From positions 800,001-864,000 of the forward strand of contig OZ255842.1 of NCBI GenBank assembly GCA_965277805.1: 64,000 nt of DNA. Direction: 5' to 3'. The notes beneath the pieces are model-generated. The model was not told the origin of the DNA. It saw only the letters and a list, made by a program, of their open reading frames with translations, and did not search any database. The position numbers were made by a program, and so were the translations under genes. This DNA is from Candidatus Lustribacter sp. (GTDB lineage: Bacteria > Vulcanimicrobiota > Vulcanimicrobiia > Vulcanimicrobiales > Vulcanimicrobiaceae). Of the stretch, positions 22,349 through 28,660 are shown one piece after another (the stretch's first letter is position 1; each line of letters opens with the position of its first letter).

Positions 22349-22978
22349 ATGTGGGCGGCGATCCGGCCCTGGCTCTTTCCCGTCTGGTGCATCGGCTGCG
22401 GCGAGCCGGATGTCGGACTGTGCCCCGCCTGCGCCGCCATGGCCCGGCCGGTGGCCGTCTCCCTCGACGGTCTGGCGGTCGGCGCGGCCGGCGACTATGA
22501 GGGTGCGGTGCGCGAGGCCATCCTTGCCATGAAGCGCGGCGAGCGGGCTTACCTCGACCCCTTGGCGGCTCTGCTGGCGCCGCTGATCGAGCCGGGCAGC
22601 ATCATCGTGCCGGTCGCCACGACGCGCAAGCGGGCTGCCCAGCGCGGCTTCGATCAAGGGCGCGAGTTGGCGCGGCGCGTCGCGGAGATCCGTTCGGCGA
22701 CGTGCGAGGACGTGCTGGTCAAGCGCGGTGGCGCACAGCGCGGGCTGGGCCGTGGCGAGCGCCTGCAGGCCGAGGGCCGGTTCGCCGTGCGACGCGGCGC
22801 CTTGGTGCCGTCGAGCGCGGTGCTGCTCGACGACGTCGTCACGACCGGCGCGACCCTGCACGACGCAGCCTCCGCGCTGGCAGCCGCCGGCTGCAGCGTC
22901 GACGGGGCGGTCGTCGTGGCGCGGACGCCGCCGGGCCGCGAAACCCAGCGCGGCGGCCGAAGGTTGGGCGGAGCGTGA
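22349..22978 (+). CDS. ComF family protein (zinc ribbon + phosphoribosyltransferase)
   Basis: CIGC..CPAC, RGFDQ, LLDDVVTTGAT. Confidence 0.88.
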   Translation: MWAAIRPWLFPVWCIGCGEPDVGLCPACAAMARPVAVSLDGLAVGAAGDYEGAVREAILAMKRGERAYLDPLAALLAPLIEPGSIIVPVATTRKRAAQRGFDQGRELARRVAEIRSATCEDVLVKRGGAQRGLGRGERLQAEGRFAVRRGALVPSSAVLLDDVVTTGATLHDAASALAAAGCSVDGAVVVARTPPGRETQRGGRRLGGA

Positions 22979-23256
22979 AAGCCATTTGGAACGGCGCCGT
23001 GCTCGCCGAAAGCAACAGCACCGAAGTCGTCGAGGGTAACCAGTACTTCCCGCCCGACTCGATCAAGCGCGAATATTTCAAGCCCAGCGCGACCACGAGC
23101 GTTTGCCCGTGGAAGGGCACCGCGTCGTACTACACCGTCGATGTGAACGGCAAGCAGAATGCCGACGCCGCCTGGTACTATCCGGCGGCCAAAGATGCGG
23201 CCAAGAACATCGAGGGATACGTTGCGTTTTGGAAGGGTGTCGAGGTTCAGCCGTAG
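22975..23256 (+). CDS. DUF427 domain protein
   Basis: KAIWNG.VLAES..VVEGNQYFP, CPWKG.ASY, AAWYY; GTGA overlap. Confidence 0.9.
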   Translation: MKAIWNGAVLAESNSTEVVEGNQYFPPDSIKREYFKPSATTSVCPWKGTASYYTVDVNGKQNADAAWYYPAAKDAAKNIEGYVAFWKGVEVQP

Positions 23257-23268
23257 ACCCTCTACCCG

Positions 23269-23922
23269 ATGTTTAGCGGGCTCATCAGCCACCTCGGCCG
23301 CGTCGCGTCGCTGCGCGGCGATCTGCGCAACGGCATGGTTCTCACGGTGGAAGCACCCGACGCCATCGCCGAGGGCGTCGCGGAGAAAGACTCGATCGCC
23401 GTCAACGGCGTTTGCTTGACCGTCGTAAAGTTCGACGCGCGCACGCTGACGTTCGACATCGTGCCGGAGAGCATCATCCGCGCGGGCATCGACGAGCTGC
23501 ATGAAGGCGACCCGGTCAATGTCGAGCTCTCCCTGCGTCTGGGCGACCGGCTAGGCGGCCATCTCGTCTACGGCCACGTCGACGCGAACGCGGCGATCGT
23601 CGGGAAGCCGGTCGAGGGCCAAGGACATCGGCTCACGATCGAACGTCCGGCCGCAATCGAACGTTTCATCGTGGAGAAGGGCTTCATCGCGATCGACGGC
23701 GTCAGCCTCACGATCGCCTCGGTGACGCCGGAGTATTTCACGATTGCACTGATTCCGGAAACCTCACGCCGTACGACGCTCGGAACGAAAGGCGTCGGCG
23801 CGCGCGTGAACATCGAGATCGATCCGGTCGCGCGCTATGCGTTTGCCGCGGTCGATGCGTACCGCAGCGTGGATGATGCCGGCGCGACCGATGCCGAACT
23901 CGCCTGGGCCTACGAAATCTAA
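23269..23922 (+). CDS. ribE: riboflavin synthase
   Basis: MFSGLI, SIAVNGVCLT, GGHLVYGHVD, IDGVSLT. Confidence 0.93.
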   Translation: MFSGLISHLGRVASLRGDLRNGMVLTVEAPDAIAEGVAEKDSIAVNGVCLTVVKFDARTLTFDIVPESIIRAGIDELHEGDPVNVELSLRLGDRLGGHLVYGHVDANAAIVGKPVEGQGHRLTIERPAAIERFIVEKGFIAIDGVSLTIASVTPEYFTIALIPETSRRTTLGTKGVGARVNIEIDPVARYAFAAVDAYRSVDDAGATDAELAWAYEI

Positions 23923-23937
23923 ACGGAGGAAACACCC

Positions 23938-25029
23938 ATGCCTTTGACTCGCCGCGCCGCTATCGGCGGCGCCTTTGCTGCTGCCGCCGCGACGCAGATC
24001 GGGCCCGCCGGCGCACAGGCCGATGCGTGGAAAGCGCTGATCGCCGCGGCGAAAGCCGAGGGTTCGGTCGTGGTCGACGGGCCGCCGGTCGATCTCGTGC
24101 GCGAACTGTTCACGCAAGGAATGCAGCGCGAGTACGGCATTTCGGTTTCGTACATCCCGAGCGAGAACTCGACCAGCGCCGCGCGTGTGCGCGCCGAGCG
24201 TTCGGCCGGAAAATATTTACTCGACGTGCTCGTCGCCGGCGGAGATACGCCGACCGCAACGTACTTGCCGTCGGGCTGGCTCGACAAACTCGAGCCGTTC
24301 CTGGTCGCGCCCGACGTGATCGACAAACGCAAATGGAAAGACGGCCACATCTGGTGGGAAGAAGATAGCCACTCGATCCTGCGCACGTTGCAGTTCGTCA
24401 CGCCCGAACTCGCGATCAACACCAAACTCGTGAGGCCCGGTGAAATCACGACGTGGAAAGCGCTGCTCGATCCGAAGTGGCAAGGAAAGATCATCGCCAA
24501 GGATCCGGGCACGTCCGGCGCCGGCACCTCGCTGATCGCGATGCTCTACATCACCTTCGGCCCCGATTTCGTGAAGAAGCTCTATCGCGACCAGAAGCCG
24601 GTGATTTCGCGTAACGCGCGCCAAGCGATGGGGTTCCTCGCGCAAGGCGGATACGCGGCGCTGCTCGGCCCTGAGGCGACCGCGATGAATCAGTTTCAGA
24701 AGCAGAATTATCCGATTCAAGCGGTGTTCCCGACCGACGCGCCGAGCATTCTCTCGGGCGGTTACGGGTTGATCTCGCTCGTGAACAAAGCGCCGCATCC
24801 CAACGCCGCGAAGCTGTTCATCAATTGGCTGGCGGGTCCCGGGCCGCAAAAGGCGTTCGCCGAAGCCGTGCAGTCGGTCAGCTTGCGCAACGATATCCAC
24901 TACGAGAATCTGCCGTCGTGGGTGTTTCCGCAAAAGGGCACCAAGTATCTCGATTCCTACGACTGGAAGTTCGTCAACGAGCAGCGCGAGCCCGCGATGG
25001 ACAAAGCGCGCGATCTGCTCGGCGAATAG
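23938..25029 (+). CDS. extracellular solute-binding protein (Fe3+/thiamine-type ABC), Tat-like signal
   Basis: TRRAAIGG signal, AAKAEG, LLDPKWQGKI, APHPNAAKLFINW. Confidence 0.88.
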   Translation: MPLTRRAAIGGAFAAAAATQIGPAGAQADAWKALIAAAKAEGSVVVDGPPVDLVRELFTQGMQREYGISVSYIPSENSTSAARVRAERSAGKYLLDVLVAGGDTPTATYLPSGWLDKLEPFLVAPDVIDKRKWKDGHIWWEEDSHSILRTLQFVTPELAINTKLVRPGEITTWKALLDPKWQGKIIAKDPGTSGAGTSLIAMLYITFGPDFVKKLYRDQKPVISRNARQAMGFLAQGGYAALLGPEATAMNQFQKQNYPIQAVFPTDAPSILSGGYGLISLVNKAPHPNAAKLFINWLAGPGPQKAFAEAVQSVSLRNDIHYENLPSWVFPQKGTKYLDSYDWKFVNEQREPAMDKARDLLGE

Positions 25030-25038
25030 GAGACGCGC

Positions 25039-26136
25039 ATGCAAGATCACACGCTGAGCCGTCGCGCCGCAATCGCCGGAACGTTGGCGCTGGCTGCCGC
25101 CGCGCAGAGCCCGGTGAGCGCACAGAACGACGCGATGAAAGCGCTCGCCGAAGCGGCCAAGGCCGAAGGGTCGGTGACCGTCGACGGACCGCCGATCGAC
25201 GAGGTGCGCGTCGCGATTACGCAAGGCTTCCAAAGCGCGTACGGCATTCCGGTGACCTACATCAGCAGCGGCAGCTCGGCCAGCGGCGCGCGCGTGCGCG
25301 CCGAACGCGCCGCCGGCAAGTATTTGCTCGACGTGTTCCTGAGCGGCGGCGACACGCCGCCATTGACGTTTCTCCCGTCCGGTTGGCTCGACAAAGTCGA
25401 ACCGGTGCTCGTCGCGCCCGACGTGATCGACAAGCGCAAGTGGAAAGACGGGCATTTGTGGTTCATGGACGACGGCCACTACATCTTGCGCACGCTGCAG
25501 TTCGTCACGCCCGAACTCGTTATCAACACGAAGCTCGCGCCGCCGCGCGAAGTTCGCACGTGGAAGGCGCTGCTCGATCCGAAGTGGCGTGGTAAGATCG
25601 TCGCCAAGGATCCGGGCGTCTCCGGCGCCGGCACGTCGCTGATCTCGATGCTGTACTTGCAATTCGGTCCCGACTTCGTGAAGAAGCTCTACAAGGATCA
25701 GCAGCCCGTGATCTCGCGCGACGGCCGGCAAGCGGCGCAGTTTCTCGCGCAGGGCAGCTACGCGATTCTGCTCGGACCCGACTCAACCGCCGTCGATCAA
25801 TTCCGCCATCAAGGCTATCCGCTCGAGTTCGTCTTCCCGACCGACGCGCCGAGCATTCTCAGCGGCGGCTGGGGCCTGATCTGTCTGATCAACAAAGCGC
25901 CGCACCCGAACGCCGCCAAACTATTCATCAACTGGCTCGCGGGTCGCCAAGGCCAAGAGCCGTTCGCGAAATCCGTGCTCTCCGCGAGCCTGCGCACCGA
26001 CCTGCACTACACCGACATGCCGCCCTGGGTCTTCCCGCAAAAAGGCACCCAATATCTCGACACCTACGACTGGAAATACGTCACCCAAGAACGCGACCCG
26101 GCCCTAGAGAAAGCCCGCGCGCTGTTGGGTGAGTAG
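25039..26136 (+). CDS. extracellular solute-binding protein (tandem paralog)
   Basis: SRRAAIAG signal; long near-identical stretches shared with the upstream gene. Confidence 0.88.
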   Translation: MQDHTLSRRAAIAGTLALAAAAQSPVSAQNDAMKALAEAAKAEGSVTVDGPPIDEVRVAITQGFQSAYGIPVTYISSGSSASGARVRAERAAGKYLLDVFLSGGDTPPLTFLPSGWLDKVEPVLVAPDVIDKRKWKDGHLWFMDDGHYILRTLQFVTPELVINTKLAPPREVRTWKALLDPKWRGKIVAKDPGVSGAGTSLISMLYLQFGPDFVKKLYKDQQPVISRDGRQAAQFLAQGSYAILLGPDSTAVDQFRHQGYPLEFVFPTDAPSILSGGWGLICLINKAPHPNAAKLFINWLAGRQGQEPFAKSVLSASLRTDLHYTDMPPWVFPQKGTQYLDTYDWKYVTQERDPALEKARALLGE

Positions 26137-26263
26137 GCTGCGGGCCACCAAAGAGCGGCATATCGTCCTAAGCCGCACACGGCCGCGACGCAGATGCTGG
26201 CCGAGACCCCCTTCCAAAACCCGCGATCTAACCACCCTCACCGCTACGAGCGTGGCATTGGGG

Positions 26264-26284
26264 TTGACAACTGTTAACTATTGT
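26264..26284 (+). promoter_or_regulatory. -35 hexamer TTGACA overlapped by an 18-bp imperfect palindrome (candidate operator)
   Basis: TTGACA 26264-26269; ACAACTGTTAACTATTGT 26267-26284 (14/18 symmetric). Confidence 0.45.
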
Positions 26285-26301
26285 GTGGTGTTTATATCCG
26301 T

Positions 26302-27717
26302 ATGGAGAATTTTTCCGCACAACTCCGCACCGCGATGGACGCCGCCGGTCTGTCGGCGGCTGAGCTTGCTTTGAAGACCGGGCTGACCGAAGGCGCGATC
26401 TCCTACCTTCGGGCCGGGCGGCGAGAACCGTCGTTTAAGTCGATCCGCGCGCTCTCGGCGGCCCTGCCGCAACTTGCGGAGCAGTTTTCGGCCCCCCGCA
26501 GCACGATGGATTCGATCGAATCGGCGATCGAGGACATCCGCAACGGCAAGATGGTCATCGTGCTCGACGACGAGGACCGCGAGAACGAAGGCGATGTCGT
26601 GATGGCGGCGGAGAAGGTCACGCCCGAAGCGATCAACTTCATGCGCAAAGAAGCCGGCGGGCTGATCTGCGTTCCGTTGACCGCGGCGCGGCTCGACGAA
26701 CTCCAAATCCCGAACATGGTGCAAGACAACACGGCACCGCTCGGCACCGCGTTCACCGTATCGGTCGAAGCGCGCGGCCGCGTCACCACCGGTATTTCAG
26801 CCGAGGATCGCTCGAATACAATCCTCGCGCTGCTCGATCCCGACGCGACGGCCAAAGATTTCTTGCGTCCCGGCCACACGTTTCCGCTGCGCGCGCGCGA
26901 CGGCGGCGTGCTCGTGCGCATGGGGCAGACCGAAGCATCGGTCGATCTCGCGCGTTTGGCGGGGCTCGCGCCGGCCGGCGTGATCTGCGAGATCATGGAT
27001 GAAGACGGCTCGATGATGCGCTTGCCGCGGCTGCGCGAATTCGCCGCCAAGCATAGCCTCAAGCTCATCACCGTAAAAGATCTGATCGCCTACCGCCTCA
27101 AGCACGAGAAGCTGATCTCGCGCATCGCGGAATTTTCGCTGCCGACGACGTACGGCGAATTCCACGGCGTGGCGTTCCAGTCGCAAGTCGACGAAGTGTG
27201 CCACGTGGCGATGATCATGGGCGATGTCGGCGACGGCAAGGACATCCTCGTTCGCGTGCACAGCGAGTGCTTGACCGGCGATGCGCTGCACTCGATCCGT
27301 TGCGATTGCGCGGCGCAACGTGACGCGGCGCTGGCCGCAATCGCCCAAGAAGGCCGCGGCGTGTTGCTGTATCTGCATCAGGAAGGGCGCGGCATCGGCC
27401 TCGCCAACAAGCTGCGCGCCTACGCGCTGCAAGATCGCGGCGCCGACACGGTCGAAGCGAACATGCTGTTGGGACTGCCGGCCGACAAGCGCGACTACGG
27501 CATCGGCTCGCAGATCCTCGCCGATCTCGGCGTCCGCGAAATGCGGCTGCTCACCAACAACCCGACGAAGATCGCCGGCCTCGAGGGTTTCGGTTTAAAG
27601 ATCGTCGACCGCGTTCCCGTCCATACCGAGCCGACCAAATATAATCTCGCGTACATGAACACGAAGCGCGACAAGATGGGCCATATGTTCACGCCGTCGA
27701 TGTCGGAGCAAGGGTAA
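26302..27717 (+). CDS. ribBA: XRE-family HTH fused to bifunctional DHBP synthase/GTP cyclohydrolase II
   Basis: N-terminal LRTAMDAAGLSAAELALKTGLTEGAISYLRAGRREPS; DDEDRENEGD, RPGH, RVHSECLTGD, RCDC, QEGRGIG, LLTNNP. Confidence 0.93.
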   Translation: MENFSAQLRTAMDAAGLSAAELALKTGLTEGAISYLRAGRREPSFKSIRALSAALPQLAEQFSAPRSTMDSIESAIEDIRNGKMVIVLDDEDRENEGDVVMAAEKVTPEAINFMRKEAGGLICVPLTAARLDELQIPNMVQDNTAPLGTAFTVSVEARGRVTTGISAEDRSNTILALLDPDATAKDFLRPGHTFPLRARDGGVLVRMGQTEASVDLARLAGLAPAGVICEIMDEDGSMMRLPRLREFAAKHSLKLITVKDLIAYRLKHEKLISRIAEFSLPTTYGEFHGVAFQSQVDEVCHVAMIMGDVGDGKDILVRVHSECLTGDALHSIRCDCAAQRDAALAAIAQEGRGVLLYLHQEGRGIGLANKLRAYALQDRGADTVEANMLLGLPADKRDYGIGSQILADLGVREMRLLTNNPTKIAGLEGFGLKIVDRVPVHTEPTKYNLAYMNTKRDKMGHMFTPSMSEQG

Positions 27718-27726
27718 AACGATAGC

Positions 27727-28227
27727 ATGAAGGTCGAGAAGGCGCCGCCTCCGGACGTTTTTCCGGACGCGAAGGGCAAGAAATTCGCCATCATCGTTGC
27801 GACGTTTTATGCCGACCTCGCCGCGTGGCTCGAAGACGGCGCGCGGCGCGGCCTACGCGATTGCGGCGTGGCCGATGATGCGGTGGAGGTCTTCCGGGTT
27901 CCGGGCTGCTTCGAATTGCCGGTGGCCGCGCGGCGCCTGATCCGGGCCGGCGACTACGACGGGATGATCGCGCTCGGCGTCGTGGTGCGCGGCGAAACGC
28001 CCCATTTCGATTACGTTGCCGGCGAGTGTGCCCGCGGGATCATGGATGTCCAGATCGCGAGCGGCGTGCCGATCGGCTTCGGCGTCCTGACCACGGAAAC
28101 GCTCGCACAAGCCGAGGAGCGGGCCGATCCCGCCCGCGGTGACAAAGGCTACGACGCGGCCATCGCAGCCGCCACCGTGGCGGTCATCGAGCCCAAGGTC
28201 GATCGGCCGCGGGTGGGCTTCCGCTAA
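27727..28227 (+). CDS. ribH: 6,7-dimethyl-8-ribityllumazine synthase
   Basis: VPGCFELP, LGVVVRGETPHFDYVA, FGVLT. Confidence 0.95.
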   Translation: MKVEKAPPPDVFPDAKGKKFAIIVATFYADLAAWLEDGARRGLRDCGVADDAVEVFRVPGCFELPVAARRLIRAGDYDGMIALGVVVRGETPHFDYVAGECARGIMDVQIASGVPIGFGVLTTETLAQAEERADPARGDKGYDAAIAAATVAVIEPKVDRPRVGFR

Positions 28228-28241
28228 TCCCGGCCGACCCG

Positions 28242-28270
28242 TTGTCAAGCGGACCGGCCTAGCATATACT
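28242..28270 (+). promoter_or_regulatory. sigma70-type promoter
   Basis: TTGTCA-N17-TATACT. Confidence 0.7.
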
Positions 28271-28360: not shown

Positions 28361-28660
28361 TTGTACGAAAATAAAACGTTGATTTGCAAAGACTGCGGAG
28401 CTCCGTTCGATTTTACGGTCCGCGATCAGATGTTCTACGCGGAAAAGGGTTTCGAGAACGAACCGCAGCGTTGCCGGGACTGCCGCACGGCGCGAAAATC
28501 GCAGCGTGGTGCCGGAACCGGTGCCGGCGGCCCCCGTGAGATGTTCGATGCGGTCTGCGCCCAGTGTGGCGAGAGCACGACCGTCCCCTTCCGCCCCAGC
28601 GGCGACCGGCCGGTTTATTGCCGAAGCTGCTTCAGCGCCCAAAACGCGGTCCGCGCGTAA
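28361..28660 (+). CDS. zinc-ribbon / CxxC-x17-CxxC domain protein
   Basis: TTG start; CKDC..FYAEKGFENEP.RCRDC and CAQC..VPFRP..RPVYCRSC. Confidence 0.88.
   Translation: MYENKTLICKDCGAPFDFTVRDQMFYAEKGFENEPQRCRDCRTARKSQRGAGTGAGGPREMFDAVCAQCGESTTVPFRPSGDRPVYCRSCFSAQNAVRA

Follow-up and report, generated by a model that had tools for sequence, protein, structure and literature searches.

The control of riboflavin synthesis in Bacteria is described in terms of flavin mononucleotide (FMN) riboswitches, and the accessible part of PMC5397151 names no bacterial regulator that is fused to an enzyme of the pathway. The FMN riboswitch (RFN element, RF00050) places ribB, ribA or a rib operon under feedback control and acts as an RNA within a long 5' leader. 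In Archaea, as far as the same partial text goes (Rodionova et al. 2017, PMC5397151), the regulator RbkR is a riboflavin kinase that carries, at its N terminus, a DNA-binding domain of the winged helix-turn-helix (HTH) type; its hosts have no FMN riboswitches, and its predicted operators lie at rib genes. BirA, NadR and PutA, which that text also covers in part (PMC5397151), likewise unite a DNA-binding domain and a pathway enzyme in one polypeptide and autoregulate their own operons. Small XRE proteins such as C.BclI, C.AhdI and C.Esp1396I autoregulate from a dyad over their own -35 element. Here, an arrangement of this general kind is described in a 64,000-nucleotide stretch of DNA from Candidatus Lustribacter sp. 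(assembly GCA_965277805.1, contig OZ255842.1, forward-strand positions 800,001 to 864,000), which is referred to as the window. The gene in question encodes RibBA, that is, 3,4-dihydroxy-2-butanone 4-phosphate (DHBP) synthase joined to guanosine triphosphate (GTP) cyclohydrolase II, with an XRE-type HTH in front. The protein, HTH-RibBA, is likely to serve both as a bifunctional enzyme of riboflavin synthesis and as the repressor of its own operon, ribBA-ribH. The host phylum, Eremiobacterota, is also called Vulcanimicrobiota or WPS-2; Vulcanimicrobium alpinum is a cultured relative (PMC10582173).

The gene is a single open frame on the plus strand that runs from the ATG at 26302 to a stop codon at 27715-27717 and encodes 471 amino acids. 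Its parts, in positions of the window, are the following.

26302 to 26304, plus strand: start codon ATG of HTH-RibBA, three codons before the invariant Phe-4.
26302 to 26487, plus strand: XRE or lambda-repressor-like HTH, residues 1-62, with the helix-turn-helix formed by the helices at 19-26 and 30-37.
26488 to 26517, plus strand: linker of variable sequence and length, modelled with low confidence.
26518 to 27093, plus strand: DHBP synthase (RibB) domain, residues 73-264 (Pfam PF00926, 294.7 bits).
27121 to 27618, plus strand: GTP cyclohydrolase II (RibA) domain, residues 274-439 (Pfam PF00925, 236.4 bits).

An earlier model reading of the same letters, called here the original prediction, had placed an XRE/Cro-like HTH of about 65 residues in frame before the normal start of RibBA, and this was borne out. 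The internal methionine of that normal start is residue 69, and Pfam HTH_3 (PF01381) matches residues 8-55 of the whole protein with 31.1 bits at a cut-off of 23, which assigns the domain to the XRE family at the sequence level. Residues 1-68 on their own reach 35.5 bits. Both catalytic domains are full length, with PF00926 covered at profile positions 1-191 of 191 and PF00925 at positions 2-165 of 165. The RibBA structure of M. tuberculosis (4i14) aligns with residues 68-462 at 486 bits. Its residue 3 pairs with query residue 68, which leaves residues 1-67 as an extension of an ordinary RibBA. The DHBP_synthase domain also matches further solved DHBP synthases. Across 43 fused sequences, Cys323, Cys334 and Cys336 of the RibA domain, presumably the zinc ligands of GTP cyclohydrolase II, are invariant; so is the acidic DHBP-synthase motif, which is presumably catalytic. 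HTH-RibBA is the sole RibBA, RibA or RibB match in the genome.

An AlphaFold2 model was built from the 43 fused sequences. It contains five helices at residues 2-15, 19-26, 30-37, 45-54 and 56-62 with a predicted local distance difference test (pLDDT) score of about 90 and values of 84-91 over residues 1-40, and the HTH modelled alone gave the same five-helix fold. The closest solved folds found with Foldseek were C.BclI, C.AhdI, ClgR, SinR, DdrO, P22 c2 and 434 Cro, all at a template modelling (TM) score of about 0.7. These neighbours are DNA-binding domains from repressors and controller proteins. For C.BclI and C.AhdI, the TM score was 0.72 and the root-mean-square deviation was 0.8-1.7 Å, with an E value of only 4.5e-3 because the domain is small. 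A profile search of the PDB with the HTH returned a phage immunity repressor (8bny, 4.3e-5), the 434 repressor, SinR and the C proteins. The modelled fold, with five helices and the helix-turn-helix at helices 2 and 3, likewise assigns the HTH to the XRE family. Linker residues 63-66 have a pLDDT below 50, and the linker columns are gapped and variable in two alignments; as modelled, the linker is short and flexible.

The original prediction had also named an observation that would overturn it, namely translation from the internal Met-69 (26506), with an HTH that is neither made nor conserved. Such a start would give a 403-residue form and leave the upstream frame as a relic. Disagreement among annotators about the start codon speaks for this idea. 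Many public gene calls begin at Met-12 (459-residue forms; clusters P0019-P0026 and others) and thereby remove helix 1 of the HTH. On the other side, the HTH codons (residues 4-58) show a ratio of nonsynonymous to synonymous substitution rates (dN/dS) of 0.05-0.10 in close orthologue pairs, at a dS of about 0.8-1.5, where synonymous sites are saturated in these genes. The enzyme part gives an equal range in the same pairs, 0.05-0.11. Fifteen HTH columns are invariant in the 43 sequences, and residues of helices 2 and 3 are among them. The open frame and the conserved HTH are found in about 270 species, and the ATG or GTG stands at a fixed distance from the promoter. This codon precedes the invariant Phe-4 by exactly three positions in 77 of 89 distinct loci, and in the remaining 12 it is found one codon to the side. 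No Shine-Dalgarno sequence is visible before the ATG at 26302, and there is none before 26506, whereas lineages without the HTH have Shine-Dalgarno-like sequences ahead of their starts. An unmade HTH is thus extremely unlikely, and on the evidence here the HTH is translated, and purifying selection acts on it no less strongly than on the enzyme. The public names of 68 related clusters mention the enzyme only (RibBA), so the putative regulator is invisible in databases.

The second part of the argument concerns the DNA in front of the gene, where the features are the following.

26263 to 26278, no strand: conserved 16-bp dyad, candidate operator, with 7-bp arms on either side of a 2-bp centre, the left one including the -35 element.
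26264 to 26269, plus strand: -35 hexamer of sigma-70 consensus, inside the left operator arm and at the same position in relatives.
26267 to 26284, no strand: palindrome of the original prediction, real in this genome, with a right end that is not conserved.
26279 to 26301, plus strand: block between promoter and start, conserved within the genus, with no TAnnnT at canonical spacing.

The dyad was the top-ranked 16-mer common to the 110 nucleotides upstream of 21 fused genes in an unbiased de novo seed search. In a set of 89 non-identical upstream regions, it is the only conserved non-coding block, and the information in its flanks is about zero, although synonymous sites of these genes have reached saturation. 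Five of its positions are invariant in 89/89 regions. The -35 hexamer (dyad positions 2-7) matches the consensus in 80/89. The right arm, which falls in the spacer of the promoter, is as conserved as the -35 element, with positions 10-12, 14 and 15 kept in 77-89 of the 89 regions in a mirror image of the left arm. The one exception to the symmetry is the partner of the hexamer's G, which is T in 57/89 regions and the symmetric C in 18/89. A palindrome over the -35 element had been proposed in the original prediction. It is present, and its 12-nucleotide arms (26267-26278 and 26273-26284) are 83% complementary, but it is shifted by 4 bp in register against the conserved dyad, with its centre 5 bp downstream, and its right end varies, with bases 26279-26284 differing among the same-genus loci L001-L005.

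The dyad is also rare and faithful to the fusion. With a matrix from 16 sites, the dyad in the window scored 25.7 bits and ranked first among the 11,066,532 positions of the 5.53-Mb genome; the runner-up reached 18.6 bits, and 11 positions scored at least 15. The full 16-mer occurs once in the genome. Of the 80 fused loci kept from a scan of species genomes with the HTH (see below), all 73 with at least 90 nucleotides of upstream sequence have a site of at least 15.0 bits within 90 nucleotides of the gene. None of eight unfused loci has a site above 11 bits in about 4 kb, and the best operator scores at two further unfused loci of the family are 6.5 and 7.8 bits. By these scores, the dyad is lost together with the HTH.

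The geometry of the promoter leaves little sequence ahead of the gene. The gap between the last base of the -35 element and the ATG is 32 nucleotides, in agreement with the roughly 30 first noted. A -10 element of the TAnnnT type was found 17-18 bp after the hexamer in 11 of 21 loci and is visible in many more of the larger set. Where such a hexamer is seen, the ATG or GTG begins 6-9 nucleotides past it, and the first base of the dyad is 45-48 nucleotides from the Phe-4 codon in 71 of the 89 loci. The mRNA is probably leaderless, with the start codon at or within about 3 nucleotides of the 5' end. With this -35/start geometry, neither a ribosome-binding site nor a riboswitch would have space. 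The start in the window lies at +39 from the first base of the dyad, against +36 or +37 in most other genera. A genus-specific conserved block between operator and start was also seen in the same-genus loci L002-L006. Locus L007 (G024) carries, about 70 to 30 nucleotides upstream of the gene, a divergent operator variant within a longer inverted repeat, and a Shine-Dalgarno-like run before its GTG suggests that this lineage may not be leaderless.

The resemblance to C proteins raises the question of the sign of regulation. C proteins bind dyads at the -35 element of their own promoters. By analogy, the HTH could activate, or activate and then repress, by recruiting RNA polymerase at low occupancy and blocking it at high occupancy. 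This is in keeping with C.BclI and C.AhdI as the nearest solved folds and with the over-long spacing from -35 to start in the genus of the window. A second operator-like site occurs in 10 of the 89 loci, at 29-30 bp in seven (L007, L008, L017, L055, L058, L061 and L075), at 93 bp in two and at 54 bp in one. The seven sites at 29-30 bp would suit a C-like arrangement, but they are also what cooperative repressors would show, and they hint that in some lineages two dimers bind cooperatively. However, the site is single in most loci (79/89), and the centre of the dyad near -29 lies inside the polymerase footprint. The consensus -35 in 80 of the 89 regions means that no activator should be needed. 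For these reasons activation is very unlikely, and repression is the preferred sign.

The original prediction had seen no leader resembling an FMN riboswitch, and wider searches agreed. In the window, no RF00050 element reached the gathering score, and the two Rfam matches were both tRNA. RF00050 was likewise not found in the complete genome (5.53 Mb), in 41 genomes of the class or, across the phylum, in 151 genomes that represent 19 families. In the larger runs the filters were stricter and only a part of the candidates was scored, so "not found" is the appropriate wording for them. A positive control recovered RF00050 in 7 of 14 named genomes. Riboswitches do occur in this genome, as two cobalamin elements exceeded the cut-off with 115.5 and 70.4 bits. 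A full-length match resembling a thiamine pyrophosphate (TPP) riboswitch scored 40.8 bits, below its cut-off of 54.3. In genome coordinates, the TPP-like match lies at 5062608-5062738, and the two cobalamin elements lie at 2595370-2595559 and 2906612-2906733.

The distribution of the fusion was surveyed in 401 genomes sampled across the phylum, which were searched with residues 1-110; at this query length, an E value below 1e-30 requires the HTH. In the family of the window, 281/296 genomes matched, about 268 of them below 1e-30 (a count from the table), and all five genomes of the sister family did so too. In the next family of the class, 27/30 genomes matched. That family and others gave only 1e-10 to 1e-16, which corresponds to the enzyme part alone. 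Among the matches listed (150 rows), all span from residues 1-8 to 108-110. Six of the 13 weakly matching genomes of the family were inspected. The gene is fused but split across contig ends in G251 and G285, it is cut by a contig end in G058, and the HTH is truly absent in G005, G180 and G110. In this sampling, by the alignment scores, the fusion is limited to one order of Eremiobacterota and is not present in the next order or in other families.

A tree of RibBA (96 rows, rooted on the unfused sister order) places the three unfused family members apart from each other and nested among fused ones. It needs three changes, and L009 falls within a set of seven rows with a support of 97. Such scattered unfused members on the tree point to one gain of the HTH, followed by two or three later losses. 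The unpublished genomes G015 (L014), G036 (L025) and G251 (L120 and L121), as well as some survey rows, enter as single rows each, and no claim is made on them alone.

The HTH was also traced independently of the enzyme. A scan with the HTH alone over one genome per species (185,579 species) gave 161 relatives, with 80 loci kept. In 80/80 of these the HTH stands in front of RibBA, as one uninterrupted match in 76 and broken by runs of N or by frameshifts in four. A word-based search at 37-119 residues found no stand-alone orthologue of the HTH, its four matches all being pieces of the fusion. Similarly, a profile search of 1.84 billion representatives returned 8748 generic XRE matches; no stand-alone orthologue was found among the eight short or truncated top matches inspected (P0079-P0083, P0088, P0089 and P0091), all of which were fragments or frameshifted fusions. 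In the ESM Atlas, residues 1-110 retrieved DHBP-synthase and generic phage or XRE clusters only, and no fused cluster. Three metagenome-assembled genomes labelled Gammaproteobacteria, Limnocylindria and Acidiferrales (L041, L049 and L080) carry a fusion and operator of the Eremiobacterota type. These are probably mislabelled or mis-binned contigs, as they group with Eremiobacterota sequences.

The transcription unit and its surroundings bear on what the protein might control. The nearby genes of the pathway and those between them are the following.

27727 to 28227, plus strand: ribH (lumazine synthase), 9 nucleotides past the ribBA stop (Pfam DMRL_synthase, 162.4 bits).
23269 to 23922: ribE, 2.4 kb upstream of the fusion gene.
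23938 to 25029 and 25039 to 26136: two tandem paralogous genes for periplasmic solute-binding proteins (SBP_bac_1), between ribE and the HTH-ribBA promoter.

On the same strand, ribH follows ribBA in 110/113 loci, and in two of the three exceptions a contig end truncates the locus. The gene ribE lies directly upstream of ribBA only where the HTH is absent. As ribE adjoins only the unfused ribBA and ribH is constant, the unit consists of the promoter-operator, HTH-ribBA and ribH. The genome also appears to have a split ribD, with a reductase at 1405692-1406216 and then a deaminase at 1406392-1406697 (L125-L127). The two open reading frames score 74.8 and 61.2 bits, below the cut-off of 156 for the bacterial ribD model. 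The usual order seems to be reversed there, in that a stand-alone RibD_C reductase frame precedes the deaminase frame.

Autoregulation of riboflavin synthesis at the DNA level, the central idea of the original prediction, can be kept, as a prediction, in a narrower form. An enzyme-fused autoregulator architecture and a dyad at the gene's own promoter are present, but the operator matrix scores below zero upstream of DUF427-ribE, the split ribD and ribF, so that the predicted regulon is ribBA-ribH only. Candidates for a wider regulon were considered and taken as chance. The next hits lie at 18.6 bits between genes for an unknown secreted protein and a DUF4142-like protein, at 18.5 bits between convergent gene ends, at 17.2 bits inside a KaiC-like gene and at 16.4 bits inside ribE; none of them is convincing as a rib-related or promoter-placed site.

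The neighbours examined were ribE, the two solute-binding protein genes, ribH, a zinc-finger gene and an IF-2B-family gene; no restriction-modification genes were among them. A DUF427 gene at 22978-23253 ends 13 nucleotides before ribE and is probably co-transcribed with it. Just past ribH, a sigma-70-like promoter match (10 of 12) lies at 28242-28270, and downstream of it is the gene for a small double treble-clef zinc-finger protein at 28367-28657.

Several observations weigh against the proposal that HTH-RibBA represses its own operon. The enzymes HppE (1zz6) and HEPD (6b9r) were also among the fold-search matches of the HTH, and cyanate hydratase was matched with an E value of 0.14 in the PDB profile search. 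XRE-like domains without known DNA binding do exist on enzymes (HppE, HEPD, cyanase). The operator matrix partly scores its own 16 training sites, and among the 80 later loci there are 10 duplicates of loci already in the set. Since the dyad contains the -35 element, its loss together with the HTH could be the loss of a whole block of promoter plus HTH, and on these comparisons the co-occurrence of HTH and dyad does not separate an operator from a promoter. A covariation of the recognition helix with the operator appears in the raw counts: where residue 31 is Ser, operator position 13 is not T in 24/30 loci, against 8/59 with Gly or Ala. It is gone under an independent-pairs test (83-row RibBA tree; among five pairs with support, about 0.5 show a different operator). 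In the genus of the window, the start codon stands 2-3 bp farther away from the -35 element and no canonical -10 element can be placed. The head is dispensable, since in three lineages the HTH was lost while the enzyme stayed. Lastly, the site occurs only at ribBA-ribH, and the rest of the pathway would escape its control.

Several of these points would also suit a more modest reading, in which the 16-mer is merely an unusually constrained promoter and the HTH is structural or oligomerising, as in HppE, HEPD and cyanase, or binds another nucleic acid. The enzyme HTH-like matches (1zz6, 6b9r, cyanate hydratase), the co-loss confounded with promoter loss and the missing helix-to-operator covariation all favour it. 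However, sigma-70 reads no sequence in the promoter spacer, and the right arm in that spacer is kept nearly throughout and mirrors the left. The single occurrence of the full 16-mer in 5.5 Mb and the invariant residues of helices 2 and 3 argue in the same direction, and this reading is unlikely. Judged from the alignments, HTH-RibBA is a real, conserved and well-delimited fusion with a probable regulatory role.

The way in which HTH-RibBA may repress its operon can be outlined from its parts. The enzyme part of RibBA is dimeric in solved relatives. Such a dimer would present two HTH heads to the two 7-bp arms of the dyad. Occupancy of the dyad, which is centred near -29 across the -35 element and the first part of the spacer, would block RNA polymerase. 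The enzyme that commits GTP and ribulose-5-phosphate to riboflavin would in this way cap its own synthesis and that of RibH. As a guess, the occupancy of the enzyme domains by substrate or product might alter how the two heads are presented. A metabolite-gated switch, in which GTP, ribulose-5-phosphate or a flavin end product re-orients the tethered heads and thereby sets the transcription of ribBA-ribH, is put forward tentatively and by analogy. If HTH-RibBA is a true trigger enzyme, it could, at a guess, be a stand-in for the missing FMN riboswitch.

The same data can be explained by plain negative autoregulation with no metabolite input. The enzyme part would then only dimerise, and RibBA and RibH would be held at a set level. 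The predicted site is found only on the gene's own promoter, and ribE, the split ribD and ribF are without one, whereas a regulator with feedback over the entire pathway should control more rib genes. The flexible and variable linker argues against tight allosteric coupling, and no ligand-related feature was found in HTH-RibBA. On the other hand, a repressor on the committing enzyme, in a phylum with no FMN riboswitch found, suggests sensing. The known enzyme-fused regulators BirA, NadR, PutA and RbkR respond to ligands, as given in the accessible part of PMC5397151, and it is because of this analogy that the present analysis leans towards metabolite tuning. Plain autoregulation is accordingly held to be possible, though doubtful.

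The likely autorepressor HTH-RibBA can now be set beside the known systems. The FMN riboswitch performs the same task, but it is an RNA in a long leader; HTH-ribBA probably has no leader, and no RF00050 element was found. In Wolbachia, the small transcription factors wBmxR1 and wBmxR2 bind the promoter of ribA (RibBA). In the available part of PMC3518464 they are separate proteins, are reported as activators and co-regulate type IV secretion genes; they are not enzyme-fused. The C proteins are the closest in solved fold and in the position of the dyad. Their transcripts are leaderless. They differ in being stand-alone proteins of 70-80 residues from restriction-modification systems, with tandem operators that lead from activation to repression, whereas the HTH here is fused to an enzyme. 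A C-protein circuit, with a stand-alone C gene beside restriction or methylase genes and tandem C-boxes, is not what the locus contains.

No description of an HTH-RibBA fusion was found in the literature outside subscription journals, which were not covered. The accessible text of a 2026 review makes no mention of helix-turn-helix, RbkR or XRE and describes no such fusion. The fusion would extend the short roster of trigger enzymes by an enzyme and a DNA-binding fold that are both new to it, and the three independent losses of head and site together provide natural controls. In place of the riboswitch, a whole order of a widespread, barely cultured phylum of soil and peat appears to use a protein solution. 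If the metabolite-gated switch were true, HTH-RibBA would be the first case in Bacteria of a protein that regulates riboflavin synthesis by feedback, and across this order it would functionally replace the FMN riboswitch, on a leaderless mRNA.

Among enzyme-fused regulators, BirA, NadR and PutA have a known ligand logic; none of them acts in riboflavin synthesis, and none carries an XRE HTH on RibBA. Two marks of a trigger enzyme, a DNA-binding domain and a pathway enzyme in one polypeptide and a predicted operator at a promoter of the same pathway, are both found in HTH-RibBA by sequence. RbkR shares with it the N-terminal DNA-binding domain on a riboflavin enzyme. In what is available on RbkR, that domain is a winged HTH, whereas here it is of the XRE type, and the enzyme is a cytidine triphosphate (CTP)-dependent kinase at the end of the pathway, whereas RibBA stands at the start. 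The regulon of RbkR comprises several biosynthesis and transport genes, in contrast to the single own-promoter site found here, and RbkR is an activator released by FMN (both from the accessible part of PMC5397151), whereas the present site is in a repressor position. With its HTH_3, DHBP_synthase and GTP_cyclohydro2 domains, HTH-RibBA differs in fold and enzyme and is thus not a member of the RbkR family, only an analogue. By this analogy, HTH-RibBA is most like RbkR in its biological role and would work in the manner of a trigger enzyme.

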